Assembly: GCA_963702895.1 (NCBI GenBank)
Contig: OY969767.1
Location: 736,001 to 800,000, forward strand
Direction: 5' to 3'
DNA length: 64,000 nt
Source: an uncultured Elusimicrobia bacterium
GTDB taxonomy: Bacteria; Elusimicrobiota; Elusimicrobia; 2-01-FULL-59-12
A model generated the notes under the pieces. The model did no database searches, had not been told where the DNA came from, and saw only the letters and a list, made by a program, of their open reading frames with translations. Shown one piece after another: positions 12,214-50,000 of this stretch. A program made the translations under genes and the position numbers. Positions within the stretch are counted from its first letter, which is position 1; the number at the start of each line of letters is the position of its first letter.

Positions 12214-12226
12214 AAAGGAGGGTGCC

Positions 12227-12627: not shown

Positions 12628-12656
12628 TTGCAGGCTCGACGGAGGGCAGGTACAAT
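12628..12656 (+). promoter_or_regulatory. Putative sigma70 promoter TTGCAG-N17-TACAAT
   Basis: Consensus-like hexamers with 17-bp spacing; ATG at 12669. Confidence 0.55.
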
Positions 12657-12668
12657 GTCATTACGGTC

Positions 12669-13763: not shown

Positions 13764-14010
13764 ACAGGGGAGAGAACAGGGGAGAAAAGGGGAAAAGATG
13801 GGAGGACAGGGAAACATGGCCAAGGGAGACGGCGACATGGAAAAAGTTCGATTAAATTTTTCTGCCCCCGCGCCTGAGCCACTCCACTCTTCGCCGAGCG
13901 ATCCCATCGACAATTCGTCAGACACCCTTTCTTCCTCAAGCCTCTTCTCCCGTCTTCTCCCCCGTTCTCCCCTGTTCTCCCGTGTTCTCCCCGTCCTCCC
14001 CTGTTCTCCC
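13764..14010. repeat. Inverted purine/pyrimidine decamer-repeat element upstream of ORF2
   Basis: GGAGAACAGG-like units at ~13764-13812; complementary CCTGTTCTCC-like units at 13941-14009 (six 10-mers and one 9-mer). Confidence 0.8.
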
Positions 14011-14021
14011 TTGCGAAGCGT

Positions 14022-17000
14022 TTGATCTCGCTGCTTTTGGCCCTGTGCATGATCGTCGATCCCGTGTGGGCGACGGGCGTTTCGGACTTCGTCCGCGCGA
14101 GCTTCACGCACGACATCCGCGACATCATGATCCCGGCGAAGCTGGGGATGGTGACCGATAAGTGGATTGCGTCTGTATCGGAGTATCGGAGTAACGGAGT
14201 GCCGGGGTCACGTCAGAGCCGTAACTCCGCTACTCCGAAACACCGTGACTCCGATACTGTTGTTACCCCGATACCCCGATACCCCGATACTCCGGTACAG
14301 CCGTTTGTCGTCCTCATCCAAGACCTCCACGCCAACATCAGCGTCCAGCAAAATATCTCGGGCATCCTCCAGTTCCTCTACCGCCGCACGCGACTCAGCC
14401 ACATCTTCGCCGAAGCGGCCTTCGGCCCCTGCGATGTCTCCATCCTCCGAACCCTCCCCAGTCGGCGCGCGCAGAAGCGCTTTGAGAAAAAGCTACTCGA
14501 CCAGGCGCTCATCGCCGGCGACGAGCTCGCCGCCGCGCACGTGGGCGAGGGTCCCCTCTCACCCGTCAAGCTCATCGGCGTCGATGACCCGCTCCTGTAT
14601 CTGGCGAACGTCCAGGCGTTCCGTGATCTGGTTTCCAACGGCCCGCGGATCGCCGAAGAATGGAAGGCGATCCGGGACATTCTCATGCCCGGCGCGGCGC
14701 CGAGCTTGCGCCGGCACCTCGAGCTCACCGAGAAGATGCTGTCGCTCAAACTCGTCGATTACGAATGGGAACAGTACAAAGAACATAAAGATTGGACTCC
14801 TGGAAGGGCGTCCCGAGTCCCGAGTCCCGAGTCCCGCGTCCCGAGTTCCGCGTCCCGAGTCAAGGGACGGACGCAGAACCTGAACGGCCAGACGCGAAGC
14901 GCAGGACGCAAGACGCAAGACGCAGCACGCAAGACGCAGGACGCGCGACGCGTAACGCAGGACGCGAGACGCGTAACGCAGGACGCGAGACGCGAGACGC
15001 GGGACGCTTTATCTGAAGCGATCGCAGCGGCCGAGCGCTTCTACACCGCCGCCGAAGCCCGTAATGGGGCGATGGTGGACAATTTGCTGGATCAAATGGG
15101 TGTATCGGAGTATCGGAGTACCGGAGTACCGGAGTCACAGCGTGAAGGCGTAACGGAGTACCGGGGTACCGCAGTACCGGGGTCACATCAGAGCCGTAAC
15201 TCCGTTACTCCGATACCCCGTTACCCCGATACAGAAATTGCGCCGGTCGCGCTGGTGACCGGCGGCTTCCACACCGCCTCGATCGCTCACCGGCTCAAGG
15301 AGCAGGGCATCAGCTTCATGGTGGTCACACCCCAGGTCGACCGCCTCGACCACGAAGAGCTCTACGTCCGCAGCATGACCGAGCCGCCGCACGAAACCGT
15401 GCGGGCGGTCGCCACGTCCGGTTATCGACAGCTTACGAACCTCAAAAAGTTCGCTGTGAGCTTCGGCATGGGAGAGAAATTCGGAGAGTGGTTCAACCGG
15501 ATGATCAAGCCACAGTACATCTGGAAACAAATCAAAGCCTGGGCCCAAGATAGTTTTGATGTTCTTGTGCGTGAGGTGGCCGCCAGACTCCTCCGACAGA
15601 TCATGGACCAGCCTCAACGATTGCCTCGCTTCGCGTTGTCTCGGCGTTGGGCCCCGGCGCTGGCCGGCATCGGCACCGTTTTGGTCGCCACGCTCGCCTC
15701 CGTGGCGGATGCCGGCACGCTCCAGGCCGCCTCTTTCGCGCCGAGCCTGACGGCGGCATCCGCCGCTCAGCCGGCCTCTGATTTTCCCTCGTTGGGTGCG
15801 GCCTTCTGGCAGAGCGCCTCTGTCTTTCTATTGGTGTCCATCTTATCCATCCTTCTTGTAGCGTGGACCTGGCGATTCTTCCGCAAATGGCAGAAAGCCG
15901 AAAGTCCGCATATGGACATAGTGCATCGGCTTAGGAACATGATTCCACGGAGGTCAGTAACACCAGGCAGTCGTCCTGGTGTTAATCCGTCAGCGCCTCG
16001 TCGTGCGAAAAGTCTCCAGGCCGGTCAACCGCGGAAACCCTCCCCTCCCGCTGTTCTGCGTCTGCAGCTTGCTACTGATGTGCCAGCGGATCCCGTTGAT
16101 CTGCGTCTGAAGCTTGCTACTGATGTGCCAGCGGATCGAGGTGCAAAAGTACCCTCGGCCGGTCAACCGCGGACACCCTCCTATTCCCGTGTTCTGCGTC
16201 TGCCGTCCGTCCTTGTCATGGCCGCGGGAACGCTCTCCGCGCTGGCCGCCAGCGCCGGCAAAGTTGCAGCTCAGGGCCTCGAGGTCGCCGGCGCCGCGGC
16301 GGGCCAGGCCGCCAAGCTCGTTCAGGTCGTATCGCCGGAGGCCGTGTCGGAATACATCATTCATCCCGGCGACACGCTGAGCGAGATCGCGCCGCAGCTC
16401 GGGACCACGGTCCAAGACCTGGTTGAGCGCAACCATATTGTGGACCCCGACCTCATTTTCGCCAACGCCAAGCTCCTCTATCCAACACCGCATTTTGCGA
16501 CGGATCTTGCCGTGACGGCGTCCCAGCCGGCCGCTCAGGTCGCGGGTCCCGCCGCCCAGGCGGCCGACGCCGCGGCGCAGGCCGTCAACACGATCCCCTC
16601 CGCCGCGCAGGCGTCCAGCTGGTTCGATTCCGTCCAGCAGGTTTTCTCTCAAGGCTCGGCCGTGCTCCAGGCGCATCCCTATCTGATCTTCGGGTTCGTT
16701 GGCACGGCGATCATCGGACTGGTCTTCTACGGGATTTCCCGCTATCGCGCCCAGCGGTCAACCAGCGCCATCATTGAAAAAGCCTGGGTTCAGGCTCTCA
16801 AGAGAACGTACACTTCCGAAGCGCAAGCCAGAGAAGCGATCCAGGCTGTCCAGGCGCTCCTCCCGAAGCCGGGTCCTTATGGAGATTATGCGGAGTATGC
16901 CTCGGATGAACTCCTCACGAGCGTCATGCAGAGGATGGAGACCTCCAAGATTAGCCGAGGTGCGGATGGCCAGAACTGGATCCTTCGCGACGGCACCTCC

Positions 17001-20000
17001 AATTTGCGGCGCGAGCAGCAGGCCGCCCGGCAAGTCCGGGCCTACTACCTGGGATTGCCGCGCTACTATCTGAGACGCCTCTTCAACGCTGGGCGGCGGA
17101 AGTTTTTAAGTCCCTGGACGGAACTGGTCTCCATTGTGCCGTCCCCTTCGCCGGTCCCTCAAACGGCGCCTTCGGCAAAAGTCCAAGTGTCCGGGCGACA
17201 GGAGCCGTCGGCTGTCCACGCTTCGGTTGCCGGCGGCGAGCAAAGCGCGCCGAAAGCCGCCGCCGTGCGCTCCCAGCAGGCGGCCAAGGCCGCGGCGCGG
17301 CGGCGGCCTTCCGGTTCGGAAAAGCAGCCTAGGCGCCTCCAGGATATTCCGCGCCTGGCCGCACTCCAATTGACGGATGAAGAACAAATGGTTCTGGCCG
17401 AAGCGCCCGATCTCATGGTGGACAAGAGGACGGAAATCGATGCCGCCTACCGGCGCTTGAATGAACTGCTCGATACGCATATCCAGGCCTATGTCCTATC
17501 TTCATCAAAAAATACCTACCGGCACCTTCAGTTTGCACCTTCTAAAAAACAGCGTGCCCTCCAGCGTCCCCTCCAGCATGCCCAGCGCTTGAAGGAAATC
17601 CTTCGCCACCGCCCCCAACTTTTGCAGGAGGCAAAGCTTCTAGCACAGGCTTTAGGCAAGAACGCTCTCAACCAGAGGCGCAAGGCCGTGGATTTGGTGT
17701 TGGTGGGAAGCGCTGATTTGACGGAGGCTGCCGGGCGGCTCGAGCAAGTCGCGGCCCGCGTCGAAGGAGAACTCACTGGGGAGCTTGCAGCCGTTCAGGT
17801 CGCGGCGCAAGAGACCCAGAAAGATCTGGAAGCGATACGGCGAAGAGACGGCCGCATCCATCCATCGGTCTTAAAGTCCCTGGAACAAATAGTGCGAAGA
17901 CTTCCTACGCTCTTTGATGCCAGTTCTCTTCGCGGCGAACTGGAACATGTAGACCGCCTGAACGGCACCCTCATCGGGCGCGTCCAAAAAGCACAAGGAT
18001 TCCAGTTCCTTGCCGCCTTGCAAAGCCGGGTGAACCAGATCTTAAGGCACCTCCGCGGGATTGCCAAACTCCTCGAAGCTCTCGGTGCGCAGAAGGACCT
18101 GGCCGGCTCATGGGCTGAGTCCAGCAACAACCGGTGGCAGGCCGTCTTGGCCAGCCTTGCCCCGGCCCGCCGCATGCTCGCCCCGGTGGTCGTCGTGCTT
18201 GGGCTTGTGTTCGCCGGACCGGTCTGGGTCCCCTACGCATGGAGCGTCGTCGCCACGGCGCCCTATCTGAGCGGCACGGTCCTTGTGGCGGGCGCTCTTC
18301 TCGTTGGGGCCATCGCTGGCGTGAAGCGCTACCGTGCTTCCACGATGGTCGTGCTGGATCTGACGCCCAAGCTGTCCGGCGCGGGTGTTTCGGTTCTCCC
18401 GTTTCTCGCGCAGGCGCCTGCGCCTCGTCGCTTGGCGCGCACCGGCCTGGTGAGTCTTTTGCAGGCGGTGTCTTTTGCGTTGCCAGTGGCAGCCGGGAAT
18501 ATGGGGCCTTTCCAGACCCCCGCCCAGGAACTTCAAGACCAGGAGCTCTCGGGCTGGCAGCGCCGGGCGGACTACTTGCGCCGGCAGAGAGGCTATCTTG
18601 ACCCAAGGTCCTCCCGCGCGCAAGACCTTGCCCGTGAGTTGTCATGGGTCGAGGCACACCTTGAGGAAGTCGCGCTCCGCACGGCCCAGATGGAAAGGTA
18701 TTTGCAGGACCCTGCGCGTCTCAGTGCCGTTCATCAGCGGGAAGCCCGGCTAGAAAAACTTGCTTCCGAGCTTGCCGCGCTTGAAAAGCAGAAAGCCCCC
18801 GCCTCTCGCGTGGAAGCGCTTCGCCTGCAAATCCGCTATGAAGAGCTTGAACTCCGCAGGCTCAAGATTCCGGAAGAGCTTCATGACATCAGCCAGCAAA
18901 AGATCGCCATTCTCAAAGAAAACAAGGACGTCGATGCGCGGCTCAAAGCGCTCTATGCCCGCGAGATGACGATCCAAGCGGAAGAAGAGGCGCTCTCGCA
19001 GGCGCTTGTTGCCTCAGCCAACGCCTACGGGACATCGCAGGCGCTGCTGGAGGACCTCCAAGCAGGCCGCGGTGACGTGCTGGGTAAAGCGCTTGGCGTG
19101 CTCATCGGAAACTTTGAGCGCATCGAGAAGCTCCCCCGGCCGGAGCAGGAACGGATCCTGGCCGAGCTGGCCCAAGCGCGCGGCTGGACAGGGGAGCGGT
19201 CGGAAATCCTCCGGCAGCAGGCCATCGAGCTGCTCGAGCGCGCGCTCGTTCCTTTTCAGGCGCGCTTCCAGATTCGCCTGGACTTCTATGACCGCGCCAT
19301 GGCCCAGGCCGGGCTTCGGGAGCGTGCCTTGAACGGCCGCGTTAGTCACGCTGCGGCGGCTGAAGAGCTTGAATTCGAACGTGAAAGCGATCGTGCGGCC
19401 GCTGTCATACTCGAGAATCCCTATGCCGATGTTCTACTTGAGAAAGACTACGCCGGTGTCGCGGATGCAACCTTAACGCAGGAAGAAGTGGAGCTGCGGA
19501 ATCATTTGATCTCGATCATCGCACACGCGGAGGCCCGCTTCGACCAAGAGGTTGTGACCGGAGTCAAGCCGTCCCAAGACAGCGCCGAACTCGCGGACGT
19601 CAACTGGAAACTGGCCACAGCCCAAGGTCCTGAGCGCGAGAACCTTCTGAAGAAACAGAAGGAGCTTCAAGCGAGCATCCAGAAGCGTGAGGAGGCCGCC
19701 AAGCTCTCTCAGCGGAACAGCGAAATCAAGGCGCTGGCCGGGCGGCTCAAGCTCAAAGCCGGCAAACCCCAGGCCGAGTTTCAGCACCTGGCGAGCTGGC
19801 TGAAAGATTTGCATATCGCGGTGCCCCCTCCCGCGCCCTCCGCGGGCCTGCAGCAAAGGCTGGCGGCACTCAACCCCTCCCAAAGGGTGCAAGCCTTTTC
19901 CGAAGAGATGGAGCGCATGACCGAGCGCTCCTACGATGAAGGCCTGCAGCAGGCGATGAAGGTTTTTGGGGAAGTGTACGGTGTTGTCGTCGGCGACGAG

Positions 20001-23000
20001 TTCGATCAGAACATCGCCGATGCGCTGATCAAGGCCCTGCAATCGCCGAAAGACCAGGCTGATGTTTTGAAGGTGGAATCCCGCCTTGAAAACTCCGAAC
20101 AGAAAGAGGAACCCTCGTCCGCGCCCAAGTCCACTCCCGGCTTCTTCCCAAATCCCTTCGCTTGGCTCTGGTCCAAGATCGGAACCGAGGTGGATGCTTT
20201 CCAGGAACAATCATCGAAACCAAAAGAAAGCGCTGCCGATGCTCAAATCGCTTCCCAACTGGCAGAATTGGAGCGCCAGCTCGGCGAGGAGAAAGACAAG
20301 CACAAGAAAGACCAGCTCACCAAGGAAATTTTCGAGTTGCGCTTCATTCAGTCTCAGCGGGCGCTGGCGGGGAATGTCCGCGCGCTGCCCGATCAGCTCT
20401 CCGCGATACCGACTGAGCAGATCGGGCAAGTCCAAACATGGCTGGTCCTGGCCGGAATGCCCGAGCCGGATGCCGTCGCGCGAGGCTGGAAATACGCGCC
20501 GCAGATGAACGCGTTTCTGCGCGACTTCCAAAAGCAACGGGGCATCACCGGCGAAACCGACGCGAGCGGCCAGCCGCTCCTTCTCGAGAAGACAAAAGAC
20601 GCCCTGATCAAAGCCGTTTGGGCCGGACAGCGCCGCGCCCAGCGTACACAGGCGGACGCGCTGGCCCGTGCAGAAGAGCGCCAGAGACAAGCGCAGCTCC
20701 AAGACGAACACGCCCGGGCTGCTGTCCAAGCAGAGGCCGCCCGGCGCAAGGCCCAAGAAGAAACCACCACTTCTCCTGAGCGCGCGGAGGCCGCTGCTGG
20801 AGCCGTCGAGAATGTTGCCCGCATGAGCACGGATCTTGGCACGGGCGCCGAGGAAAGCCGGCGCGTGGTCGCAGCCCAGCAAAAGATCCCGCCGGGGATG
20901 CTTCCGGCCGTGGAGAAGCTGGTGAACCGCCTGAGCTCCCGGGCCGCCAACCCCCTGCAAGAACGGGCGGTCATTTATGAAGAGATCGTGCAAGTCCTGG
21001 CGCAGGCGTTTAGCCCGGAAGCCCTGAAGTTTGCCCTCCAGGAGCTGATCGCGCGTCATGCCAACGGGTTTTTTGCGGACGTGGCGGGGACACTGGCGGA
21101 ACACTTGGTCGGGCTCCTGGCGCTGGGCTCGTCCGTTTCTCTCGAGATTACGCAGCGCATGCTGAGCCAGACGCCGGACGTCATGGCCATCCCCGACAGG
21201 GGTTTCCGCACGCGCGAGACCCAATTCGCCGACACGAAGCTCCGGCAGTTCCAGGCGAGCGACCGCGGGTTCGACGCGAGCCAGTTGACGATGATCTTGC
21301 CACGCTTCCAGGTCCAGCTGGGCGGTGTGACGAACGCGGGGGACCGTTCTTTCTACGGCAGCCTGGGTGTCATGCTCCCTGTCGACCTGCGCGCGATCGC
21401 CCAGCGCAAGGAGATGGCGCAAGCCTATGCTGAGCTCCTCACCCGCGCGATCGCGGCCAAGAACCAAATGAATTTGGAGTTTATGAAAGGCTGCCTGCAG
21501 CTTCTGGCCTTTGAGGCGGCCATCAAGCAAGCCCAGGCCGCTCAATATGCTCAAGGGATCACCGAGGCCGAGCGTTATGCGCTCGAAGTCCAGGTGGACC
21601 TCCTTTTGGCCAGGCATGCGGAGCTCGCCAGACAACTGAGCGCCGTTTTCAAGGTGCCGCTCGAAGGCAAGGCCATGGGGAGGTTGCTGGGCGAGAAGCG
21701 TCAATCCTATTTTGATCTGCGGGAAAACACCCAGGTACTCGAGCCCGGGACTATCCAGAGTACGCTGGAGGAAGCGACGGAGGATGTGACGGCCTGGCTC
21801 AACCGGGAGTCCATCATCACGCAGGTCACGACCATCCTCCAAGGGCGCCCCGGCGTGAACGTCGAGACGCTGGGCAACAAGCTGCGGGCCGCCCTAAACA
21901 ACGCCGGCCAATCGGCGCTTATGAGCGGCGCGGGGCTCGATGAGGTCGTGCACACGGTCTTACGGGAGGCCCATTTAAATCCGCAGCCGATCGAAGACAA
22001 TAACTGGGAGATCGGTTTCACCCTCGCTCCTGCCCGCGCCGTTCCCAAGGGTTCCGATGGCAATCGCTTGGGCAGAATTCTCCTCGCGATCGGGACGAGG
22101 TCCCGGGGCTCGCTGATGCCGGCGCTCGAATGGAACGGCGGCGTGCGAGGACGCCTGGGCGCCTTCATCCACATCGATCTTATCGATCCTGCGCGCAAGG
22201 GCGAGCTGCCGGCCAAGCTTCGCGCGCTGGAGGCGGCCAAAGCGCGCGAGCGGCAGCTCGATGTCGAGCAGATGCGCCGGGAAGCCGCGTACACCTCTGA
22301 TCTTCTGGCCGGGCCCGCCGCCAGCGGCCAGGCGGCGCCGGAGCTCGTGGGTCGCTACCTCACAGCACGGCTGCAACAGCGGATTTTGGGGCCTGCTTCA
22401 GAGGCGGAACAGTGGCTTGAGACGGCCGTACCGATTCTTGAAGGGACCGCTGCAGATTCCGAATCCAGCCTGCGCGGCATCCTCGCGGCCGCGCGCAGCC
22501 GGGAAAGCGAAGCCGGCGTGTCCGCCGCCCAACTCCAGCTGGGCCTGGTCGAGAAAAAGTCTGGACGCTTCTCCTTGTCGATCGATATCGGGGCCCCCGC
22601 CGGCCCGACGCTCATCGAGCTCGCCTGGGACCGCAGCCGCTTCAAAAATCAGAACCAGATCATCGAGCAATTGCTGAAGATCCAAAACGCCCTCAACCTC
22701 GACCTCGTCGAGTTCCAGACACTGGCCGTCGTGGAAGTGCTCATCGCCGCCCACCAGTCCCCACCGGACTCCCTTGAAGCGAAGGTCGCCTTCAAGCAAG
22801 CGCAGTTCATGCTCCGGCGCCTCCTCGGCCAGGCCGCGCTCAGCCTCACGCTCTCCTCCGACACGCTCGAGGGCCTCACGCGGCTGCGCGAGGAGCTCTA
22901 CGCCCGGCAGAGGGAGCGCCAGGCCAAAGCCACGGAGCTAGAGGCGTTTGTTGCCCAGAAAGTCTATGAAGTGGCTTTACAGAACAAACCGTCCCTTCGA

Positions 23001-26000
23001 ATCACCGTGCCCGCTTCCCCGACCCCGAAGACGGTTGTCGTGGCCATTGCCAAGAATCTGATCAGTGTGCCGGTCTTTCTGGTCAGCTTCTTACGGCATG
23101 GCGTGACGCCGCAAGAGCGCGCCGAGAAACGTGCCATCGATGAGCAACAACGCGCCCTCGAAGAGCAACAACGCGCCCAGGGACAGAAGCCCCAAAGCGC
23201 CCCGAAGAAGCCCATGAGCGAGCGCGAGAAGCGTCTGGATGAACTGGAAAGAAAAGCCCGCGAGGCCGAGGAGCAGGCTCTCGCGGCCCAGATTGCCCTC
23301 GAGCTTGAGCAAGGGGGACCGGGCGTCCAGGTGATCAAAAATAACGCCGGCCAGGTCATGCTCTTCACGGAAGTTCAAGGGGCTAACCCCGCGGGGCCAA
23401 GCCGCCGCTATTTCCTTGTCCGGCCCACGCCCCAGACCATCAAGGACCTCGTGAACTGGCAGCCTGGCCGCAGGGACCAGGAGATCTCGACCCTGACGGG
23501 ATCGTTCCTTGCCCCGATCCTGGTCGCGGCCGACCTCATCAAAGTCGGCGATCTCCATGAATTGGCGGTCACGGAGTACAACAGCGCGAACGGCAAAATC
23601 CTACGCACCTACCACGTCGGCGGAGAAGGCGTCCAGGCGCTGGTGCAGGCGCGGGACACGAACCTCAACCAGGATCTGGTCGGCCAGATCGCGTGGCAGT
23701 TCCTGATATCGGACTTCGTTCTTGGGCTCGGCTTCTCGGGCACGGCGGGCCAGCCCGGCCGCTTGAATCAGGATTGGATGCTTCGCAACATGGGCCGCAA
23801 TTTGAAGGACCTGAGCAGCCCCATGTATGACGTGAGCGCTGTTTTCGGCCATTCTGCTTTCACGGTCCGCGGCGCCTACGCCTACGATTCGCAGAGTTCC
23901 GCGGGCGTGGCCGCCTTGTCGGCGCCACTTGGCGAAAACGCTTCGGCGGGTGTGGGCGGGAAGGTGAACACGACCGGTAAGAGCACCACCATCATCCCTT
24001 TTGGGCAAGTCTCTTACAGCCACCGGAGCGATGCGGAGGGGCTGCTGACCCGCGTCTCCGCCTATTTCTCCCAGGACCAGGACTATATCGACCTGATGCA
24101 GAACCTGAACCGCTCGAGCGCCGTCCAGCTCCGCGTCTTTTATGGAGCGGGCGGACAGCTGGAATTCATGCCTGTCATCAACATCCAGAACGGAAGATGG
24201 GTCTTGGCTGCCAACATAGACCGCCACAACATCGAGCCGTCCTTCACCGCAAGATGGGTGATCAAACATGATCTGGCGGTGCGCATCAACGGCATGTTGC
24301 ACGACGAGCGCAATTACGCGACGTATGTCAATCTGATCAAGACCCTCCCGCGAGGGGGCGAGTACTATGGAGGGGTCCGCGCGACCTCCGAGCAGTCTGT
24401 TCAGATGGACCTTGGCGCGTCGACGAGGCTCAGGAGCCTGACCGTGGAAGGCATGATGCTCTTTGAACTGGAGGACCTCGCAAGAATCTCCTGGGGATTG
24501 CAAGTGGCGCAGCACATCGGACACCAAGGCGGGTCGTCCTGGAGCGCGAGCGTCGGCGGCGACGGGCAAGACAGCTCGCGCTGGGCGTTCATGTTCCAGC
24601 AGACGCTCACGCCTCTGCGTAAACTCTATGGTTTGCCGGGCGCCCCGGCGCCGGGCGTGCCGCCGGGCGAAAAGGACGGGGTCTCGGCGCCATCTGCCGC
24701 CGGCGGTTTCTCGGAGGCCCTGGCCCAAACCTTGGGCGAGAATGCCGCCGCGGAAAAACTCTTTGACCAGATCACCCGCTCCCTCTCGACGGATGCCAAG
24801 GACCTCAAGCAAGCGGCCGAGGCCCTTCGCCGGGAACTGGTCCGCCTGCCGCCCGAGGAACAGGCGCGCCTCGGGCCGCTGGTCCAGGGCCTACTGGACG
24901 TGATCGAAGGGCTGCCGCAAGGGATATCGGTCCTACAGAAAGCAAGCCAGTCCGTCGTGGGGAAAATGGAAGCGCAGCTGGTGCAAATTGACAGGGAGCT
25001 GGAAGCGCTCGCCCCTCGTCATGCCGGCAGCGCCCCAATCCAGTCCACGCGGAAGTCCCTGCGCGAAAAGCTTGACAAGGTGTCGAAAATCCACGCGGAG
25101 GTCCATAAAACTTTTCAGGACTACCTCAAGGCGCTGCAGGACGTGCAAAAGGGCCGGCAGACGCTCCAGGCCCTGGGCATTCAGACGGACCTCTCGGAGC
25201 TGCAGCAGGCCCGCGGAGAGTACCTCAGGAGCATTGAAGCGGTCCACCGGATCTCCCAGGTGCCCCGCAGTGCGCGCTCCTCGCAAGACCGGAACGAATG
25301 GAGGCGCTTTGTCGAGCTGCGGCGCTCGCTGGATCCCATAGTCCAGGATTTCCTTCGCTCGGCGCAAGCCGAGGTTTCGTCCGATGCCCAGCGCGCCTGG
25401 CTGGATTACTTTGTGATTTGGGATTGGATGAATCCGGAAAAGCCGCAAGCCGCCGAAGTGATGAACGTGATGAAGGGCCTCCTGCCGCATCTGGACCGCC
25501 TGGGTCAGTTGGACATGAACAAGAGTGGAGCGCGCGAGCTTCTGGACCAGATCGCGAGCGCCATCCTCATCGGGAAGGTCGACCCCCAGAGCGTCTATGC
25601 GCTCCTCGACCGTGCGGCCGAGATGCTGCCGTCCTTTGCCCGGATGCAAGGCAGCAGTGCCTTTGACCTCAACCGATCGGGCGACCTGCTGGAACTTTTG
25701 CGGTGGGTCCATGGCAACGAGATGGCCGTTGACGCTGTCCAGAAGGACATCCGCCAGGAGAAGCTGCCTGAGTCCCTGGGGACGGTCCGCCAGGGCGCAC
25801 AGGTCCGAGCCGAGATCTTGAAGGATGTCGCCACGCTCTTGCGCCAGATCATCCAAGAGGCCGATCCGGATGGCGAGCAGTTCCGTAGGAGTGATCCACA
25901 ACACCAAGCGCTTTTTGACAACGCCCTCAATGTCCTGGCAGATGCCATCCTGAAGGACGCCTACCTCCGGGGAGCAAGCGTTCCCAAGGCCATGCTCTCC

Positions 26001-38000: not shown

Positions 38001-41000
38001 GCGACATCGATTGATGATTTAGGGACCATGCCGGGGGTGATGGTAGCCAAACGCTGGGCTGGCAATACCAACCTCCTGGTTGATCACGTCAGCGGCCTCC
38101 CCATGAGCATGCTGAATCGCTTCGAAGGGACTGAAGTCGCCAGCCGCTTTGCACGGCGTTTGACTGGCAAGGATCTAAGAACGGTCGTTTCGGAACTGGC
38201 AGGGACTTTGGATCCAGCCAAGCAGCAAATAGCACTGACGCAGATCAAAGGATTAAAAGATGACGCCATTGCGCCGGATGTGTTGACGCGCGCATTGCGC
38301 CTTCTGGATCCGAAGCTGGCTCGCCGCCTCGATGAGTTAACGAAGCCGCCAAGCCGGCAGGAAACAACGAAGGTGAACATTTACGAATCGCGCGACGACA
38401 AGGAAAAATCGCTGCGCTTTGAAGCGTTCCGTGCCAGCGGCCAGTCTCTGTGGAGCGTTTATGAAGGATCATCGGACAGTCCTGGTCACAAGCGGTTGTT
38501 TTTTGACGAGTACGGGGAACCGGTGGCTGACGAAGTGATCAGCACCATCGAACTGGGAAACATTCTTGCCGAACGGCTGGCCCCCTACCCATTCAATATC
38601 TACGACATCGTCTATGAACCCCTGGAGGGCGGAGGAATCAATCCGAACATCGCGATGGTCTACGCCTACGATGTGCGGCCGACGGCGGGGAATCTTCTGC
38701 AGCGTTACCTGCTGGGCCCGGTCAACGGGATTCCCTGGCAGCGCTGGGAATACGGCCGGCTCACGGAGGTGGTGCACAACTTCTGGATTACGGAAACCAA
38801 GTCGGGAGCACCCGGCCCTCAAGGCATTGTGGGACAGATTCTGGCGCCACAAAACAGAGGTCTCTGGGATCGTGTGCGAAGGAGTCCAACGGGTCAGATC
38901 ATAGGGCGAACGTATGACAGTTTCGCTGACTTCGTCCAGAGAAACTTCGATCTCATCAAGAAGGCGCTGCCCAACGAGAATGCTGTGCAAAATCCGCCGA
39001 AGACGCCGTCCGCGCAGGTTCCGCAAACGCCTCCTGCGCCGGCGTCACCCGTTAGAACGCCGGTCCAAGTTGCGCCGCCGCAGGGGACCCCACCGCCAGG
39101 CCGTGGCGGAGAGGCTCAAAATCAGACCGCGACGCCGAACCCGGAGACCACGGGGAGCCGAACTAAAACCGCTGCGCGCATCTTGACCGTTGCGCTGGCG
39201 GTGTTGCTGGGCGGGGCTCAGACGCTCTTAGCCCAAACGGTCGTTCCCGCTGCCACCGGATTACCGGAAAAGCTTTCCATGCCTTCCCATCTGCTGCACA
39301 TGCCCAACGTAGCGTTGGACTCCAACGCCATGTTAACGGCGGCGTGCGCCATCCTGGTAGGAGCCTGGGCGCTCAACCGCATTCGCAGACGTATCGGCCA
39401 GATCCGGGCGATTCCGTCGCGTCCCGACTTGAACGTCGCTCCCGAACGCCTGACGGTGAACGAACTCCTGGCCTCTCCGGACCCGCAGACCTTCCGGGCG
39501 AACCTGTCCCGGGCGTTTCCTGAAGTCAATCGAGGGCTGCAGCAATTGATGGACCAAAACCTGCTCACTCCCGAGAAATTGCGCACCGTGATAGCAGACC
39601 AGGCGAGGACAATGGGGGAAGGAGATCTGCGAGGGCTCCTGAACGAACGGTACCTGGGATTGGAAGTCCTGCAAAAGGTCATCGATGATATCTATAGGCC
39701 GATGATCAACGGTTACTTCAATGAATATGGTTTGACCGAGAACGAAGAGGATTGGGCCCGTCTGGGCATCCTCAAGACCGACCCTGTTGTGCGCAACCGC
39801 CCCCTCGACATCCGCGACGACATCACGCGGAAAATGCTCGACCGGATCCGGGAAGGGCTGCTGGTGGATCCCCGCGACCCGCGCGAGAACCCCGTCGCGG
39901 TTCAAAGAGACGATGGGTATCCGGGTGATGACGGACTCACGGTGCGCGTGCGGCGGTCGGTCCAGGAAGAGGCCTCCGGTTGGGTGGATTACAGCCTGCG
40001 CCGCTTCCACCGCGAGCAGCTGTTCGGCTTTCTAGTCGGCGGCCACCAGCTTCAGCAGGGTTTCCTGGAACATACTCTCTTGGACGCCGATCTATTCGAG
40101 CAGCGCCTGCGCGATGAGGGTCGCGCGGGTCAAGGCCGGACCCCTCCGACGGGCTGGTTGAGCGAGATCCTGACACGGACCCGGGACAAGGCCTGGCGGG
40201 AAATGTTTGTTTTGACCGTGGAGCTGAACGAACAGCTCAGCGCCAGGATCCGCAAAGGATTCGGCATGAACGACCGGACCCTTCAGCGCATCGACGGCCC
40301 CCAGGAGCAAATCTGGCGCCTGCTGCTGGAGGAAGAATATTGGAACTACCTCTTCGACTATGTAGGGTTTAATGATCCGTACGAGGTTTTGGGCGTCACC
40401 AAAGCGCACTTGGAAAGCCTTGTGGTGGATCGCGCGGGCACGACGTTGGGAGATCTCTTGTCTCGCCGCGGGTACAACCGGGAAATTGACCCCGCAAACA
40501 TCCGAGACGGGCAAACCACGTGGACAAACCTGGCACCGTCCGCCGTCCCGTCCGCGGCGCTCCTGCGGCGACTTATGCAGGGCCTCTCGCCATCTCAGCG
40601 CACTGTATTGGTCCAGGAGATCGTGGACACCAAATTTATCCCCTTCTTGATTGCTCATTGGAAGGGAGGGCTCAATGTGAAGGAAGTGCGCGCCATCGCC
40701 GCGGAGATGAATTTGGAGCCGGCCATCATGGCGCAAGTGAACGATATTTTGCGGCGGCATCTGGACACCCTGCGCGGACAGGGAATTGATGTAGACCGCT
40801 ATGGGGATTACCAGATGGTGCCCGAAGACGCCATCCGGACGGCCATGGAAGCCGGCGTGCAGCGTGAAGTGGTGGAACCCGGCGCCGGTCCCCTGGGAGA
40901 TATCAAGCGTCTCCATTCTTCTCTGAGAAGGGGACTGCAGCCTCAGCTCAAGAGCGAAGTCGAGCAGGCTGTCCGAATGAAGCTTCTTCCCCAATTCGAG

Positions 41001-44000
41001 ACCTTCCCTCGGCGTTACTTCAATCCCGTGAGGCTGCCGTTGTTCTGGAAGTCCGGAGTGCGGTGGGCCCTTACGGCCGGGGCCTCGATCTTCTTTTCCT
41101 TGTGGTCGGTGGGACAACCGTTCCTGGGAATCGCCAGCCCTTTTGGGCGCCTGTTCAGCGATGTTCTGGGCGTGGTCGCGGTACGGCACGCCCGCTGGCT
41201 GCTCGTTCCTCTGTTTGATTCTGGCAGCGGTTGGACCATTGGATCACTTCTCATCATTGGCTTGGTGGCGATGCCTCTCGCCTGCGCGGTGTCCTACTTA
41301 TTGTGGAGGCTGGTGTTGCGCTTCGAAGCGCCGATCAACCGGGGAGTCGCCGGTTGGGTGGCGCGGCACGGCCGGGGTCGTCCCGGCCTGATCAATGAAA
41401 TGCTGGAACAGCACATTGACCCGCGGTTCCGCTGGGCCGGTGAGGGTCTCTCAACAGAGGAATGGAACAAACTCTCGCCGGAATCCCAGGAGTGGATCAG
41501 GCAGAGCATCCGAGGCCTGAGGTTCTGGATTGGAAGACTTCTGCCGGCTTTCGCGATCACCATGCTCACGCTGATGAGCATTTACGCGGTACCGGCCGTC
41601 GAAGCGCAGACCGGATTGGGCCCGGTCCTGTTCAACATCTTTGCGATGGGCGGGATGTATGTGCTTTGGGCTTTGTTCACGTATGTGCTGGTGCGCGCTT
41701 TCGGCATGATGGGACAAGCTTTTGTCGCTGCCCGCAGCCACCGCGAGGTGGGCCGGTTCACGGTGCCGACGCGCTGGGAATTGCAGCAATCCTTGAATCT
41801 GTTCCGCAGCCGGGCCGGGATTACGACACCGCAGCCGGCCTCCTTCTGGCGGAACCTGGCGCGTCCGCTGACCCTCGCGGTAATCGTCCTGGGTCTGCTG
41901 GGGATGTTGGCGGCGCTGTTCGGATTCCCGGGGACCGATTGGCTGAACACGGTCCTTTGGCAATGGATTTCCCAGGCCGCGACGTTCCAGGGACAACCGC
42001 TTGCGACAGCGGGATTCGGCCAGCTTCCGGACATCACCGTAACCGTACGCGGGCTGCTGGCTTCCGCCAGCGGGCTGGTGGCGGCCATGGGTGCCGTGTA
42101 TGCGTGGGCGAGACACCGGGAAATGTCCAAACGCTTCGGTTTCTACAACTACCAACTGGCCGGGATGTCGGAAGAGCGCACCCGGGCGCGCTCGATCAAG
42201 CTTTACGCGCGGGTGGTGGACAAGCTCCTCGAGAAATCGCGCATCAGCGCGGAGCAGCACCGGATGCTTCGTCAATACGTTGTCCCGCGGGGTCTGACCG
42301 AAGAAGCGGAGGAAGAATTGAAGTTCTTCATGAACACCTTCTTTACCAAGCGTGATGGCAAAGAAGGTGTTCCCGAAGCCGCACTCCCCTGGGAAGCCGC
42401 GCCGCATCTGGTGGACCAGCTGCAAAGCTACACGGAAATTGTGAGTCCCACGATCGCTGGTCTGACGGCGCTGGTTGGCTACAACGCGGGCGCTCCGCTT
42501 GATCCGCAGAAAAATCCAGCTCCGGGGGCGCGTGCCTATGCGCAGGAAATCCAGAATTTCGCCATCAAGATTTACCCGGCGGACTGGCGCCATTTTGTGG
42601 ACCGAATGCGCCAGATCAAAGGGCGGTGGCTGGAAGACGTGCAAAGGCAGCATGGAGTGGGCAGCCCCGAGGCTTTGGAAGCGGAGCGGAAAATTGACGC
42701 CGACATCGCGGCCCTGGCCAGCCTCGATGAGAACACCGTTTTAATGGTGCTCAATGACCCTGCCCACCTCACCCCCGATGAGGAGAAACTCCAGAGGGCC
42801 TTCGCCCTGGCGGGGTATCCCCATGTGGCGTTGATGCATGCGGGCAACGCGCCTCTGATAGAGGAAATAATTCTCTGGACCACCCCCAAAATGGCGGTGG
42901 TGCGGCGCGCGGTGGAATCGGCGATGCTGACTCGTCAGGTCATGCGGGAATGGGCCGAAGAGGAGCTGGCCGACACGCCGGAAGCCGTGGCTTTGCGCAG
43001 CCGATTTGGCCCCGATTTGGATATCGAAGGCCGTGAAAATCCGGAGCGGGCAGCGCTGCGCAGAAAACTTCGAATTTGGGTGGATGCTATGACCGACCAG
43101 GGACGAAAAGCCAAACTCCTGGATGAATTGAACCGCACGGGATGGATGACGCTCACGTGGCTGACCGATACCGAATTTAATTCCCTTCTGGCGATGCGAG
43201 ATCCCCAAGCGCCTGGACGGCCGCTGTTGAGCAACGATGAAGATCGCTATCTCCGGCTCGATCGAACCATAAACCAAGTTCTGGAAGAGCGCTACCAGAT
43301 GAATTACAACGCCGGCCGCGTCGACCGAGATTGGTTAAGAGAAACCGCGCAACGGCCGGATTACCAAAGGACCGTCCAATACAATGGCTTGTCCGAAGGC
43401 GGCTTGACCCAGAATTACACCTGGGATCAGCTCAATGATTACCATTTTGAGCATCCGGACCGGATTGATGGGTTGACGCTCTTGGAAAGCCTGATGGCGG
43501 CTTACCCAGGAGAATGGGTACGGTTTGTGGATTGGTTGAGGGACCGTTCGCCCAATGCGGATGTGAGAAGAGAGGTCGGTGAAAAACGCGACACGTTGGC
43601 GCATGGAGATCTCGACGGCATTTCCCAGGCGCTTCGCGATCAATTCACGCTCTGGGCAAATGTGCATCCCGGGTTTCATATTTCCACCGATTATATGGGC
43701 AATGATCCCACGGATTGGGCGCGTTTGATGGGGACGGGGATGCTCCGGTTCAATGAAAGCCTGGCTCCGTATAAAGCGTCCTTGTGGACAACGACCGCAC
43801 GCTACCTTACCTCGGCCGTCTTCTACAACGACGCCACGCAGCACCGGGAATTTGACCGTACACTGCTCATCCCCAATGTGATGTCGGAATGGAACAAACC
43901 TCAGTACGGATTCATGTTGATGCCGATGGACGTTGCAGCGCGGGATCTGACGCCCGTCAAAGCCAGTCAGTCTATTGGCGAGAGGACTTGGACGTTCATG

Positions 44001-47000
44001 GTCCAGTTGGGTATGGCCCTGCGCGGGATGGTGCTCTTCTACGGTCGCGGCGGCGGCGGAAAGGTGGACCTTCTGGTGCGTTCCCGCCGGCCGATGCATT
44101 CCACAAGCCGAACACCTGCCTTGCCGGCAGCGTCCTTACCCACCACTACTCCTTCGAGCGCGCCTTCGATCGCAAAGGTCATTGTCGCGCTCGTGCTCGT
44201 CGGCTATACAGTCGCCGTCTTATCTGGATTTGTTGGACCCCCGAACTTCACAGTCACTCTTCTAATACCCATGGTCGCTGTTTCATTGTTTGGCCGGTCT
44301 TCACGATCAGCCGCTATTAGAAAGCAAGATCCTCTGCGAACCCCCGCTTCCCATACCGTCAAATACCTCTGGAATCTGCGCTCCTCCTTCCTGCCGTTCA
44401 GTCTCATTGCCGAAGACGCCTACGCGGCGATGATGCAGATCGTCGAAGGGTCCTGGGTTTTCTATACGCAAGCGATCTCTTTCTTCGGGGACAAGCCGCC
44501 GACCGTCGGAGCGGCCATGAACCCGGAAATGAAATACGTCGCGGACATGGGGGAACTGGTGAACCGCCTGGCGGCCAAACGGATGGCCTACAGCCCCACC
44601 GTGCCGCTCAATGTGAAGCAGGTTCAGCAGTTCACCCCCGGCGCTTTCTACGGGATAAAGCTCGCGGTGCTGGCCTTGAATGTGGCGTTTAATGTCTTGG
44701 CCATCCTTCTGCCGCTCGACCCGGCCCATTCCTTCCCCGTCCCCTGGTTATTCGTGGGCCAGGGAGGCTACTTGTCGCAGGCGATCAATATCGCGACCGT
44801 CCTCCTGTTGAACTTCAAGCTCGGCGCGCCTCTCGGCCTTTTGACCTTCCTGGGAGGCGTGGCCATCAATCCGGGATATTTCTGGATGTTCACTCTGCTG
44901 ATCCCGCTCTATGTGTGGTCCCAAAGCGCTTGGGGTATGACCGGGCTGTTTGATTTCCGGATGACGGCACGGGTGCCCCCGAACGCGCCTATCGGAATCC
45001 GTGATATGTACCGACTGCATCATTTGGGGATCATGCTGGCCGCGCCGCTGCTTCTGCTGATGCACAATTTCGCGGCCTACCATCCGATCGTTTTCTGGGT
45101 GACCGGTCTGCAATACGTGCTGATGCTGGTCGGCTGGATCATCGCGCCGCAGATATTGAACCCGCGAGAAGAGCGCGTGCAGAGCGTCCGGAACCGCCTG
45201 GTGCCCGTCGCGGTGATGACGGTCGTGGGCGTGTACGCGGGTCTCTTGCTGGGGTACAGCGGGGCCCTTTACCTCGCGCTGGGCTGGGCCGCTATGAAGT
45301 TGATCTTCTACAGAGACACTCTCAAGCAGGTCCGGGGCCACACCTCCGACGTGGATTCCCTCGCCATTATTGCTTTGTCGATCGCTTCCTACGGTAATCC
45401 CGTCCTGTTCCTGCTGCCGCTGGCCTGGGTGCTGATGGAGAGAAACCGCCGGCACTGGTTGATCGAACATCCCCGCACCGCCGCACGAATGGTGTGGAAT
45501 TTCATCCTCCGTCGTGGGGCCTGGGATGGGAGAGTCTTCAACGGATATCTCCCCAATTCCCTGCGGATGGCGGGGTGGGGTTTGGCTGACGTCGCGATGT
45601 TTATATTCGGGGGTCAGGAAATCACCCTCGACGGTGTGCGCGCGGTACGCCTGATTTCCTTTGGACCTCAGTGGTTGCAGGATATGACAGTAGTAAGGCC
45701 GATTGATCCGAATCCGGATTACCTGCGCTGGAACTGGAATCCGATGGTGGCGGCCCGCGGCCGGTTCCGCGGCATGGGATTGCTGCTGTTCGCGTCAAGC
45801 TTCCTGGTCTGGTTTGGTGCCAGCATGGAATTGGTCTTGTCGGCATTCTTGGTGTACGCGGCGCTGCGCTTTGGAATGTTTGTTTACCGAATCCGGCTCA
45901 CCCGGGAGCTTCGCGGGATCGTCGATGATTGGTACGCGCAGCGAAGAATTCGGGGCTACGCCACGCTCACCGCACAAGAGATTCACGATGAGATCGCCAG
46001 GGACCCGCGGTTGGGACCGCGCCTGAGGCGCATCGAACCCTTAAGAGGCGCGGCCCGGTCGCGAACGCAGCGGCTGATTGACGACGCCCTGCAGTTCGAC
46101 CGCTCCACCACCTTGTGCGCCATCTTCGACGAACGCTTCGCCTATTCCCTGGAGACCCTGACCCACGAACTGAAGATGGTCCGGGAAAGCTCCACCCTTT
46201 ACAAGATCCTGCCCACGATGTCTGTGGCCAGCCAGCACTACCAAAGCGTCACACCTCCCGCGCCGGTCCCGCCCGCCGTCAATCAAGGCCGACGTCGCTT
46301 CCTCAAACTCACCGGCGCGGCGGCGGCCGCTGTGGCGACCGCGGGAGCCTATAAGGCCCTGAATTCACTTTCTGAATGGGGGGCTGGGAAAGTGAAGGAG
46401 ATAAAACCCGGCGTGGAAAACTGGGCTTTCCCTGGCATGTCCGTTGCGCCGGAGGCATTATTTACGTCGGCGCCAAATGCGGCAAAAAGTGTGGTCATGA
46501 CCGAAGACCGGCAAAGCGGTCCGCAATGGATGGTTGATGGCAGGCGCATTTTGATGCGTCAGGGGGTGGCGTATCAACCGGTGGAACCCGATGAGCGTTA
46601 CTATGAAAACTATGTTTCTCCGAACCGGCTCGATGTGCTCTATGCCAAACTCCTGCCCAAGGAAGAGATCGCGGAGTTGGTGAGGACCAACCCCTACTTC
46701 AACGGGTTCGAGGGGCAGGGACGAAACGATGTGCAGGACCTTGCTCAGATAGGCATCACCGCCATCCGTATTTATCAAATGCCCATCCCCGAAGATGACG
46801 ATATGGCTAAATGGTCCCTGCAGGAACGGTTTGAAGTGCTCCGTTTCAAAGAAATCATGCGCCGGGTGGCGGCCCGCGGGATCCATGTGTATGTGAGCGA
46901 AGATTTGGGCGTCACCCGCCGGTCCCCGAAGGCCGCCGACGAGGCCTGGATCCAGGCGCGCGTGGAAAAGTTGGGGCGGATTTACGGCGACGAACCATGG

Positions 47001-50000
47001 CTGGCAGCCATTTCTCTGAGTAATGAAAACGAGCGTTTCCTGCCGGGCGGGGACGCGCATGAAGTGCGCGTCAATATGGAGCCTGCCGCCTATTACGCGA
47101 TGATGAACCGCGCGGCCGAGAAACTGAAAGCGGTCATAAGTCGAAAAGGTGCCTCCCGCCCAATTTTCCTGGGTCATGGGGATCCCAACCCTGAAGCGGT
47201 GCGCCAATTTTCCAGGTTGAGCGCTTTTGACGGCATTGGGTTTAACCTCTATACCAACCCAGGTGCTGTCCCAGGCCTGCGCGCCCAGGTCCAAAACGCC
47301 ACAGCGGGCCGCCGTGTGCCATTGCATCTCGTGGCGGCAGAATTCGGCCAGCTTGCCCCGACTTTCCGGGGATTGACCAACAGGGAACGGGCGGCGTTCC
47401 GCGCGGAAAGTTTTGAAGCTTGGATCACCGCTCTTGAAAATGACCACTGGGCTTCCCACATGGCTTTTGAGTACACGGATGAACGCGAGAAGGCCTCAGA
47501 CGAGGGGGTTGGAGCGGACAAGTACGGCATTCGCGGCATCGAAGTGATCAATAATGTATTTAAGAAACACGCCGAACCGCCGTTGCCCGCGGCCGCGCCC
47601 GTACCCTCTGCCGCGGCGCCCGTACCCTCCGCCGCCGCGCCGGCGGAGAGGCCGCGTGTGGATCCGGTTTCCGTCCGGAATTCCGGCCGGAATGCTGATG
47701 GAGGGCCATTCTTTGGCCTGTTGGCGCGACTGGCCTCTCCTGCCGGAGCTGTGGTTGGCGCAACGCTCGTCGTTGGCATCATGGCCTGGCTCATTCGAAT
47801 TCGTATTCATCGGCGCACTCAAGGAAACGCGCAAGGGCCCACACTGCGCGATGAGGAACCGCCGCCTGGATCACCACCTCTGCCAGAGGACGTTTCAAGC
47901 GAAGAGCCGACTCCCGCTGGAACTTCCCCTCGCGATCCGAATCCCAGCATGGGTCCAACGGACAATCCGGAGCGCCCGCCAAGAGCTGACGCACAAACGG
48001 TCGAAGGAGACCCCATCGGCAATGATCATGGAACACCCATCATGCGGATTGTGCTCCGGGCTGCTGGACTCTTAAAACAGCTTGATCAGCCTTCCCCGAA
48101 TTTGCCGTTGTTGAGAGATCAATATAGGGAGTTGGAAAGAGACGCACGCGAGGCAGGGGTTGATCGTTCGAATCTCGTTAGCGGAGCCCTGGAGAATCTT
48201 AGAACGAGACTCGGTAGGACCCCCGAATCTTCCCCGCAGCGCGTCGGTGACGAGACCCAAGACCTCGATGAATGGCCAATTAGCAGTCGAAATACCTTCG
48301 CGGCAGCCTTCATCAGCAGTATTGTGGCCTTAACTCCTTTCGCCCTGGCCTATGCCGGTGTCAAAATCGCGGGCTTGCCGGGTGATCCGCTCTACCGGTT
48401 GGCAATTGTTCTTGCGCTTGTGCCCGCCTATGCCGCCCTTCGCGTCTATGGACGAATGGCATGGGCCATCCGCCAAGCCAAACGCCAAGCTATACGCGAA
48501 GTCGAACAAGGCAAGAAAGGCCAATATCCGCTTGACCCCATCCTCGCGGCGGCCGAGAGCTTTGATCCTCGTCAGAACCCGAAGGACTTAAGCGGCGCGA
48601 TGGAAGAATACCGGACCTATATGGCCTTTACGCTCGGCGGCCAGATCCATGCCGACAAGGCGGCGCTCTCCCACATTCCACCGGAGCTCCAGGCCCAGAT
48701 CGTGTCCCACGAGCTTGCTCATGTCCAGCAGGATCGGGCAGGGGTCGTCCGCTTCCGTGAGGTCCGCGCCTTCTGGGCGGAATTGAAGGAATCGCTCCGG
48801 GAAGACTTCGGCTTTGATCTCGACAGACTCCTCACGCGGCGTTTTGGTTTGGGTTCTCTCGTGACTTTGGTCTTGATGGCGCTCGGCGCGCCGCCCGTTT
48901 CAATGGCGGCCATGCCTCCCGCGCATCGTCCACTCGGAACAAATGACATTCATCGTTATTTGTCGTCCTTGGACGTGAGCAACGGAGTCTTTAGTCCCGG
49001 CGACATCTCCACCATTATTCTGTTGGAATCCATGGCCGCGCAGGCAGACCGCTTCAGGGGGGCGCGGGTGTTGGATTTGATGGCGGGGTCCGGCGCGCTC
49101 AGTCTCTATGCGGCGCAGCTCGGCGCCCGAGAAGTTGTCTCGGTCGACATCGACCCACAAGCTCTTGAAGACACGCGCCATAACGCGCGCGCCTTCGGGT
49201 TCGCGGATCGCATTCGAGCGGTCCAGAAAGACGTCATCCATGACCGCTTCGATGATCTCGGGCAATTCGACATCATTCTGTTCTCGCCTCCCCCGTTATA
49301 CATCGAAGGTGTGACAACAAGTTTGGCGGATAGGCTCAAGGAATTGCCCGCGCATGCCGTTGATTCGGACGCCCGCATCCTTGATCGAGTTGTCCAGCAA
49401 GATGGGATTGCCCAGTCGGCGTTGACGCCGGATGGCCACATGATCGCCTTCTTGGCCTACATGACTCCCGTTCTTGAGCGAATCCGCGATGGTGGGTTCG
49501 ATCGGCATCTCCTTAGACCCGTTTCTCTGGATTTTGGAGGCTATGCGGCTTTCGAAATCCGCCGGCAGGGAACCCCAGCGCAACCTTCTCAGAGAGACCC
49601 TTCCAATGGCTCGGTGGACACTTCATTCCCGCAGAGGGTTGATGGTGGGCCGACATCCGACAGTACGCGGAGAACTAATATCAATGCCGCGGTCAAGAAG
49701 CGGTTGGTGGACTACCTGGCGGCGGCGCGGGCGAGGGACAGCTTCGGGGTGCTCAATACTGCCATGGAAATGCCCGTTCTCACCATAGCCGGCAAGGAAC
49801 TCAAGCAGCCGGGGCCGGGCGGCGGCGGGCAGGGCGTGGTCCTCAAGGAACAGCCCCAGGAAGTGGGCAAGCAGGGCGTGGCGACCGCGGTCCTTTCGCA
49901 GCTTCCCAAGGCGTTTGTCGAAGAGCATTACCAGGGCTCGATCGAGAAGTTCCTAGCGGACTACGACCAGGGCCAAAAACTGATGGACATCGAGATCCCG

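Follow-up and report, generated by a model that had tools for sequence, protein, structure and literature searches.

Internal signal-peptide-like helices in a giant predicted membrane protein of an uncultured Elusimicrobia bacterium

Architecture of ORF2 and its signal-peptide-like segments

This analysis concerns ORF2, an uninterrupted open reading frame (ORF) of 12,887 amino acids (aa) from an uncultured Elusimicrobia bacterium, and the signal-peptide-like segments that lie inside it. The window analysed here comprises 64,000 nucleotides (contig OY969767.1, positions 736,001 to 800,000), and ORF2 runs on its forward strand from a TTG start to a stop codon at the end of the frame (14022..52685). 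All coordinates are those of the window, the segments and domains described for ORF2 and ORF1 lie on the forward strand, and nucleotides convert to ORF2 residues as aa = (nt-14022)/3+1. The genome is a single contig of 2.72 Mb, 98% complete, with 20 ORFs of at least 2,000 aa, referred to here as giants. An initial annotation had listed seven signal-peptide-like segments within ORF2 (#1 to #7) and one in the neighbouring ORF1, and had proposed that the chain is threaded repeatedly through the membrane and cut by signal peptidase I (SPase I) into separate subunits. Reading the sequence, we found the seven ORF2 segments and the one in ORF1 where they had been placed.

A hydropathy scan of ORF2 gave about 37 hydrophobic segments, many of them paired, with the second helix followed by a run of Arg and Lys residues. 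Along the chain, domains of outside type (LysM, SLT and GH5-like) alternate with domains of cytoplasm type (an S-adenosylmethionine (SAM) methyltransferase and an ADP-glucose-type glycogen synthase). The number of segments and the alternation of domain types together support repeated threading of the chain. Direct reading of #1 to #7 showed a basic n-region, a hydrophobic h-region and small residues at -3 and -1, and reversed sequences were equally rich in this pattern.

The frame opens with a leader-like segment, (M)ISLLLALCMIVDPVWA/TG (14022..14072, direct reading), which is followed by a domain that we term the 'ILIQDLH' N-domain (14280..15521). No canonical start codon occurs from the preceding stop at 13875 up to 14022; the residues AKR, which would supply the basic part of a complete leader, are encoded upstream of the TTG in the region 13875-14022, and the relative of ORF2 in the genome G064 carries a Met-led extension at the position of this leader. 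The N-domain has paralogues in the genome and no match in Pfam, and its atlas matches are hypothetical proteins of Elusimicrobiota and Omnitrophota. It is present in 74 of 301 genomes of the phylum, where it heads frames that range from 248 to 12,027 aa; in G000 alone, 134 first-look candidates for it were counted.

Segment #1, RRWAPALAGIGTVLVATLASVADA/G (15642..15713, aa 541-564; ending ADA/G), lies downstream of this leader-bearing domain and is followed by a strong transmembrane (TM) helix, S2, with the basic tail RFFRKWQK (15813..15872, hydropathy). Segment #2 (16188..16274, aa 723-751; ASA/GKVAA/Q, with the endings ASA/G and VAA/Q) is the first helix of a cassette that contains a LysM domain (16353..16478, aa 778-819; PF01476, E 3.3e-8) and ends with TM helix S4 and its basic tail RYRAQR (16677..16739, hydropathy and cassette alignment). 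A tight TM hairpin, S5/S6 (18174..18323, hydropathy), precedes #3 (18426..18497, aa 1469-1492; PVAA/G), after which about 3,100 aa follow with no clear TM helix. TM helix S10 (27855..27911, hydropathy), the basic loop GRKHRGYSR and #4 (27936..27998, aa 4639-4659; PSTAEA/Q) form an internal hairpin of which #4 is the second helix. An SLT lytic transglycosylase domain lies further on (34671..34997, aa 6884-6992; PF01464, E 5.8e-24; transglycosylases of the PDB, E 6.5e-10).

A core shared with distant homologues (38379..45935, blastp) includes #5 (39159..39233, aa 8380-8404; TLLA/Q), which shares an insertion of about 120 aa with a Pro-rich linker; the TM helix S13 (39327..39374; basic tail RIRRR), which matches the single TM helix of the distant homologues; and #6 (41538..41606, aa 9173-9195; PAVEA/Q), a conserved TM helix. 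A likeness of the core to glucan synthase was considered; searches of the PDB and Pfam with the core gave no match, and the comparison is unsupported. Beyond the core lies a leader resembling those of twin-arginine translocation (Tat) substrates, M...GRRRFLKLTGAAAAAVATAGAYKA (46218..46370, aa 10733-10783, direct reading), which was absent from the initial list. It precedes a candidate GH5/cellulase-like module (46398..47600), a lead that comes from language-model features (0.95, with Cellulase families among the matches); the module had no sequence matches in PDB and Pfam searches, and single-sequence AlphaFold gave no confident fold (predicted local distance difference test score 34.6). TM helix S32 with the basic tail RIRIHRR (47730..47795, hydropathy) ends this cassette. 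A stretch with an HExxH motif, SHELAHVQQ (48621..48743, aa 11534-11574), weakly resembles eCIS_core (PF13699, E 0.0028, 18.2 bits against a cut-off of 22) and sits between a TM hairpin and #7. Segment #7 (48837..48914, aa 11606-11631) immediately precedes the cytoplasm-type enzymes, namely a HemK/PrmC-like SAM-dependent methyltransferase (48978..49334, aa 11653-11771; PF05175, E 3.1e-11; TIGR03534, E 2.9e-13) and a glycogen/starch synthase-like domain of the ADP-glucose type, family GT5 (49824..51536, aa 11935-12505; PF08323, E 2.9e-23; TIGR02095, E 2.6e-41).

The segment in ORF1 belongs to a C-terminal hairpin (6422..6613), in which a signal-peptide-like helix, SRLARVGGLASALILVFSALSQA/S (nt 6422-6490; ending SQA/S), is followed by a loop and a TM helix with a basic tail. 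For ORF1 only a weak ResIII match was seen.

Frequency and conservation of the candidate sites

Signal-peptide-like sites are not commoner than chance in the giants or in ORF2. A crude rule for the n-h-c pattern gave 76 matches in the 20 giants read forward and 67 in the reversed sequences, and for 2,218 ordinary ORFs the numbers were 727 and 697, respectively. In a stricter test we looked for an [AVST]-x-A site after helices with basic residues in front, that is, helices running from inward to outward. Such sites followed 18 of 44 inward-to-outward helices in the giants, compared with 11 of 44 helices of the opposite orientation (Fisher p=0.17) and 20 of 43 in reversed sequences. For ORF2 alone the counts were 6/11 and 4/11 for the two orientations (p=0.67), and in two distant homologues described below they were 2/22 and 5/27 (a 40,119-aa ORF of Omnitrophota) and 0/6 and 0/7 (P0003). 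The giants were richer in strict sites than the ordinary polytopic proteins of the genome (42/273; p=0.0002). Since this richness holds in both reading directions, it is better explained by polar flanks rich in Ala than by directed sites. The ending A/Q was not enriched in the giants (4 forward, 6 reversed), and of the 199 N-terminal leader-like matches in the genome, only 11 had Q at +1. Hydrophobicity did not differ between inward-to-outward and opposite helices, either in the giants (p=0.23) or in ORF2 (p=0.60). Other detectors were abandoned: a self-trained cleavage-site matrix had drifted into the hydrophobic core, and the initial rule-based detectors were too loose or too strict. The idea that the signal-peptide-like segments are copies of one another was also rejected, as mutual comparison showed none.

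Most of ORF2 has no detectable relatives. Among the 301 genomes of the phylum only G000 matches aa 4600-5300, and no match was obtained for aa 4600-5600 among proteins of 2,086-6,640 aa, for the module with the Tat-like leader and GH5-like domain among proteins of 294-937 aa, or for aa 9170-10700 among proteins of 4,337-13,803 aa. A phmmer search with aa 8340-9539 against 1.84 billion representatives returned 3 weak matches. P0003 (5,681 aa), a weak match, is colinear with ORF2 aa 8488-10429. A two-sequence alignment used as query found no related locus in genome or metagenome contigs, and a degenerate DNA pattern derived from the P0003 match led to an Omnitrophota genome with an open frame of 40,119 aa. 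This frame matches ORF2 aa 8120-10638 and aa 11878-12521 in order at 26-40% identity (E 3e-5 to 1e-112), with E values of 1e-73 to 1e-112 over four colinear blocks; identity is 30-34% over a core of about 2,500 aa (blastp, E 1e-73 to 1e-97) and 40% over the GT5 region. The closest relative of ORF2, at L059 to L061 of G064, consists of two long frames of 3,476 and 4,477 aa with a run of N between them. The first frame is rich in Ala (0.112) and the second is not (0.076), and the two may belong to one gene or to separate genes.

Where comparison was possible, the candidate SPase I sites of #5 and #6 are not conserved. The helix of #6 is conserved, and its VEA/Q corresponds to ERL/A, ERF/A (in the fragment P0001) and LIL/E in relatives, the small residues being absent in all three. 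Segment #5 is absent at its junction in both distant relatives, the Omnitrophota ORF and P0003, which have one TM helix followed by Lys/Arg; at the same place ORF2 has the S13 helix with RIRRR and, in addition, the insertion that carries #5. The G064 ORF has two helices at this junction, with no small-x-small ending, in a weak alignment (E 0.039). For the junctions of #2, #3, #4 and #5, residue-level alignment to G064 gave E values above 0.01, too weak for a comparison. No relatives were detected for the modules that follow #3 and #4.

Membrane orientation and a proposed topology

The orientation arguments rest on our own TM calls. The surroundings of #2, #3, #4 and the Tat-like leader are consistent with the orientation expected of a signal peptide (N-in, C-out), as each follows a basic and presumably cytoplasmic stretch. 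LysM is opened by #2, the SLT-bearing stretch by #4 and the GH5-like module by the Tat-like leader, and the roughly 3,100 aa that follow #3 are of unassigned location. The claim that several of the listed segments precede extracytoplasmic domains held for #2 and, with SLT further downstream, for #4; it failed for #7, which is followed by a methyltransferase and a GlgA-type synthase, and for #6, itself part of a conserved block with several TM helices.

The orientation of #1, #5 and #7 is in conflict with their neighbours. A leader-like N-terminus, of classical form in the paralogues, stands at the head of the N-domain in 7 of 7 paralogues read in the genome and in the G064 relative, and two of these paralogues, of 337 and 351 aa, are stand-alone secreted proteins. 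Leader-like N-termini were also read in 12 of 12 N-domain frames from 11 other genomes, with only 5 of these 12 frames passing the hydrophobicity threshold, in a survey where 18 of 29 loci had no frame matching the motif and were left unread. Because its copies carry N-terminal leaders, the N-domain should lie outside, and in that case #1 cannot be oriented N-in, C-out as a signal peptide is. The charges of the #1/S2 pair (+4, -2, strongly basic) read as an in-out-in hairpin, contrary to this argument, and the #1/S2 layout recurs in a 6,672-aa paralogue and in the G064 relative. Segment #5 is preceded by the SLT-bearing region with no intervening TM helix, and an N-in, C-out #7 would make the SAM methyltransferase and the nucleotide-sugar synthase extracellular. 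Implausible domain placements of a similar kind appear in the available text of two preprints on giant proteins (10.1101/2023.11.21.568195; 10.64898/2026.06.07.730766).

Several features of ORF2 look like seams. The twin-arginine motif GRRRFLKLTGAAAAAVATAG (aa 10756-10775), followed by an h-region, lies 10,757 residues into the chain; its RRRFLK has a Met 24 residues upstream and is followed by the GH5-like module and then by the TM helix with a basic tail. The consensus of Tat signals is S/T-R-R-x-F-L-K. A looser twin-arginine pattern matched five times in the genome, never at an N-terminus (0/5), and the ORF2 match was the only RRxFLK. TatC was not found in the genome. At nt 27,800-28,000, exactly at the S10/#4 hairpin, the GC content goes from about 0.64 down to about 0.55, where it remains over some 3 kb (27800-31000) that span a helical-repeat module. 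The cassette formed by #2, LysM and S4 has a full-length counterpart at aa 705-935 of the 6,672-aa paralogue, behind its N-domain (alignment E 1e-4). Taken together, a Tat-like leader in a genome without TatC, the GC seam, the recurring LysM cassette and the stand-alone N-domain proteins point to assembly from pre-existing secretory units, and fusion may well be the origin of the leader-like helices.

On balance, ORF2 is probably a single giant multi-pass mosaic inner-membrane protein of the kind known from Omnitrophota and Elusimicrobiota, whose leader-like helices were brought in by fused modules. One chain would string together outside-type modules (the N-domain, LysM, the long repeat region with SLT and the GH5-like module) and the cytoplasm-type methyltransferase and glycogen-synthase-like modules. 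In the topology outlined here, #2, #3, #4 and the Tat-like leader would act as working start-transfer helices that re-open export after a cytoplasmic stretch, #6 would be an ordinary conserved helix of the polytopic core, and #1, #5 and #7 would be leader-like helices at module seams, not needed by the topology and possibly left over from fused precursor genes. The chain would then stay uncut at the signal-peptide-like segments. The n-h-c appearance could arise from moderate hydrophobicity combined with Ala-rich flanks and with basic residues facing the cytoplasm, so that selection for signal peptidase sites is not needed. As for the proposal that SPase I cuts at #1, #5, #6 and #7, the data do not support it: there is no directional enrichment at -3/-1, the site of #6 is not conserved and #5 is absent in distant relatives, and the orientations of #1, #5 and #7 conflict with their surroundings.

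A number of observations weigh against an uncut mosaic chain. By eye, #2, #3 and #4 are textbook leaders, with short hydrophobic cores of about 14-18 residues and Pro or Gly before the small residues at -3 and -1. In hydrophobicity the signal-peptide-like segments score +3 to +5, similar to the N-terminal leaders of the genome (median 3.6), whereas values of -1.3 to +1.7 were obtained for some partner helices. Three loci for Peptidase_S26 are present in the genome. In the G064 relative, the counterparts of #1 and #3 are likewise leader-like helices that end in a small-x-small motif, TASA/Q in the case of #3. The TM calls are themselves shaky, as the differing helix counts of G064 and the distant relatives at the #5 junction illustrate, and our detectors of signal-peptide-like segments are rule-based and crude.

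The giants that ORF2 most resembles are of the archaeovorin type, multi-TM proteins described from Omnitrophota and other phyla of the PVC group (10.1101/2023.11.21.568195; 10.64898/2026.06.07.730766). According to the available text of these preprints they carry GT5, SLT and methyltransferase domains, and most members have an embedded divergent SecA-like domain. ORF2 shares with them a single frame of more than 10,000 aa, many TM helices, the combination of GT5, SLT and methyltransferase and long unannotated regions, and it is homologous to the 40,119-aa Omnitrophota ORF in the 2,500-aa core and the GT5 region. It differs in having no SecA-like, C39 or S8 domain by Pfam and NCBIfam. The portions of 10.1101/2023.11.21.568195 that were available consider cleavage by way of C39 or S8 domains only and do not use the term 'polyprotein'; those of 10.64898/2026.06.07.730766 contain none of the terms 'cleav', 'polyprotein' and 'signal peptidase', and set aside internal signal-peptide calls as artefacts of chunking. 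A literature query returned no paper on bacterial giant proteins among the matches listed.

Cleavage alternatives, known systems and neighbouring genes

It is conceivable, though on the unlikely side, that SPase I does cut at some of the orientation-consistent leaders (#2, #3, #4 and perhaps the Tat-like one), which would make ORF2 a membrane-threaded polyprotein whose pieces begin outside and are anchored by the next TM helix. The sites at #2, #3 and #4 look canonical, the three S26 loci are consistent with such cutting, and in its available text 10.1101/2023.11.21.568195 states the cleavage of such giants as an open question. S10, its 9-residue basic loop and #4 with AEA/Q lie between two long regions in which no clear TM helix is seen; SLT is found in the region after #4, and no evidence places the region before S10 on either side. 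Within this explanation the S10/#4 hairpin would act like that of astrotactin, the second helix of which is cut by signal peptidase according to the abstract of 10.1101/493858. Against it stand the lack of directional site enrichment in ORF2, in the giants of the genome, in the Omnitrophota ORF and in P0003, the lack of conservation at #5 and #6, and the inconsistent orientation of 3 of the 7 listed sites; for #3 and #4, the modules that follow offer no relatives for comparison. The segments resemble SPase I substrates and might be read as such, and beyond this resemblance we found no positive support for cutting. A more specific form of the proposal, to which we attach still less probability, is that S10/#4 is the bacterial counterpart of the astrotactin cleavage hairpin and that SPase I, acting there and at #2 and #3, would cut the 12,887-residue precursor into separately anchored envelope proteins. 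The hairpin is a parity-neutral dip into the membrane, with its basic loop and canonical PSTAEA/Q on a compositional seam; it is followed by 3,700 aa that include the SLT domain and preceded by 3,100 aa of unassigned location. If true, ORF2 would be the first polyprotein in bacteria to be matured through the general secretion machinery.

A different protease could process the chain, through the HExxH stretch at aa 11534-11574 or through C39 or S8 activity, with the signal-peptide-like helices serving topology only. We consider this improbable. It draws on the eCIS_core match over SHELAHVQQ and on the autoprocessing by C39 or S8 domains that is proposed for Omnitrophota giants in the available text of 10.1101/2023.11.21.568195; that match, however, is under the threshold of its family, the C39 and S8 domains are missing from ORF2 as stated above, and the candidate junction motif RSE[TVI]R is absent from it. 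Far less probable again is that the frame is a row of separately translated genes that lack stop codons, each starting just before its leader. The Met ahead of RRRFLK would fit such an arrangement, but the 40 codons ahead of each of 8 segments contain no in-frame ATG, GTG or TTG that has a Shine-Dalgarno-like motif, and for #4, #5 and #6 they contain no in-frame start codon of any kind. Genome-wide, a Shine-Dalgarno-like motif accompanies 520 of 2,261 first starts.

Known precursors offer partial parallels. M13 procoat is a small free-standing precursor, consisting of a leader, an acidic loop, a TM helix and a basic tail, that is cut by leader peptidase. Its charge pattern is like that of the #1/S2, #2/S4 and ORF1 C-terminal hairpins, which differ from it in being embedded in giant chains or ending them. 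Thylakoid PsbY is described as a polyprotein with dual signal peptides (Thompson et al. 1999; Mant & Robinson 1998). Reportedly processed by a relative of type I signal peptidase, it would be a case of a cellular polyprotein that bears several signal peptides, and differs from ORF2 in being small, organellar and made of two units. Astrotactins 1 and 2 (abstract of 10.1101/493858) resemble the surroundings of S10/#4 in their order of a leader, an outside domain, a first TM helix, a cytoplasmic loop, a second TM helix with a signal peptidase site and a large outside domain. They are vertebrate proteins of the endoplasmic reticulum whose cleavage was shown by experiment and have no homology to ORF2, which is known from sequence alone. 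Viral polyproteins that host signal peptidase cuts, for instance that of flavivirus (abstract of PMC6756788), are likewise multi-pass chains with internal signal-like helices before lumenal parts, but their cleavage is shown and conserved, whereas the sites of ORF2 are neither enriched nor conserved where comparable.

In their available text, the two preprints on bacterial giants leave open whether these proteins act as one chain or are cut. The internal signal-peptide calls examined here are real sequence features and need not mean cleavage, since conserved helices, lineage-specific insertions and helices at fusion seams are found among them. Our analysis singles out #2, #3, #4 and the Tat-like leader as the three or four sites at which the question of cleavage could be answered for this protein family.

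Other features were noted in and around ORF2. Two tandem duplications within it are in frame (16046-16137 and 31925-32012), with units of 45 and 42 bases that match at 93-97%. Tandem repeats of 7-10 bases occur at 13941-15232, just 5' of ORF2 and in its 5' part; they encode linkers resembling SEYRSNGVPGS/TPIPRYPDT, and similar peptides are found in unrelated ORFs of the genome. Between the giants ORF1 and ORF2 (7289-13413) lie two genes for AAA_14/DUF4143 ATPases, one for a histidine-kinase-like ATPase and one for an AbiEii/DUF6036 nucleotidyltransferase. The C-terminal hydrophobic segments of ORF2 (52251..52622) are in part a module common to ORF3 (52797-61835, 3,012 aa), which has a DnaJ domain and carries two copies of this module with 58-63% identity to that of ORF2.

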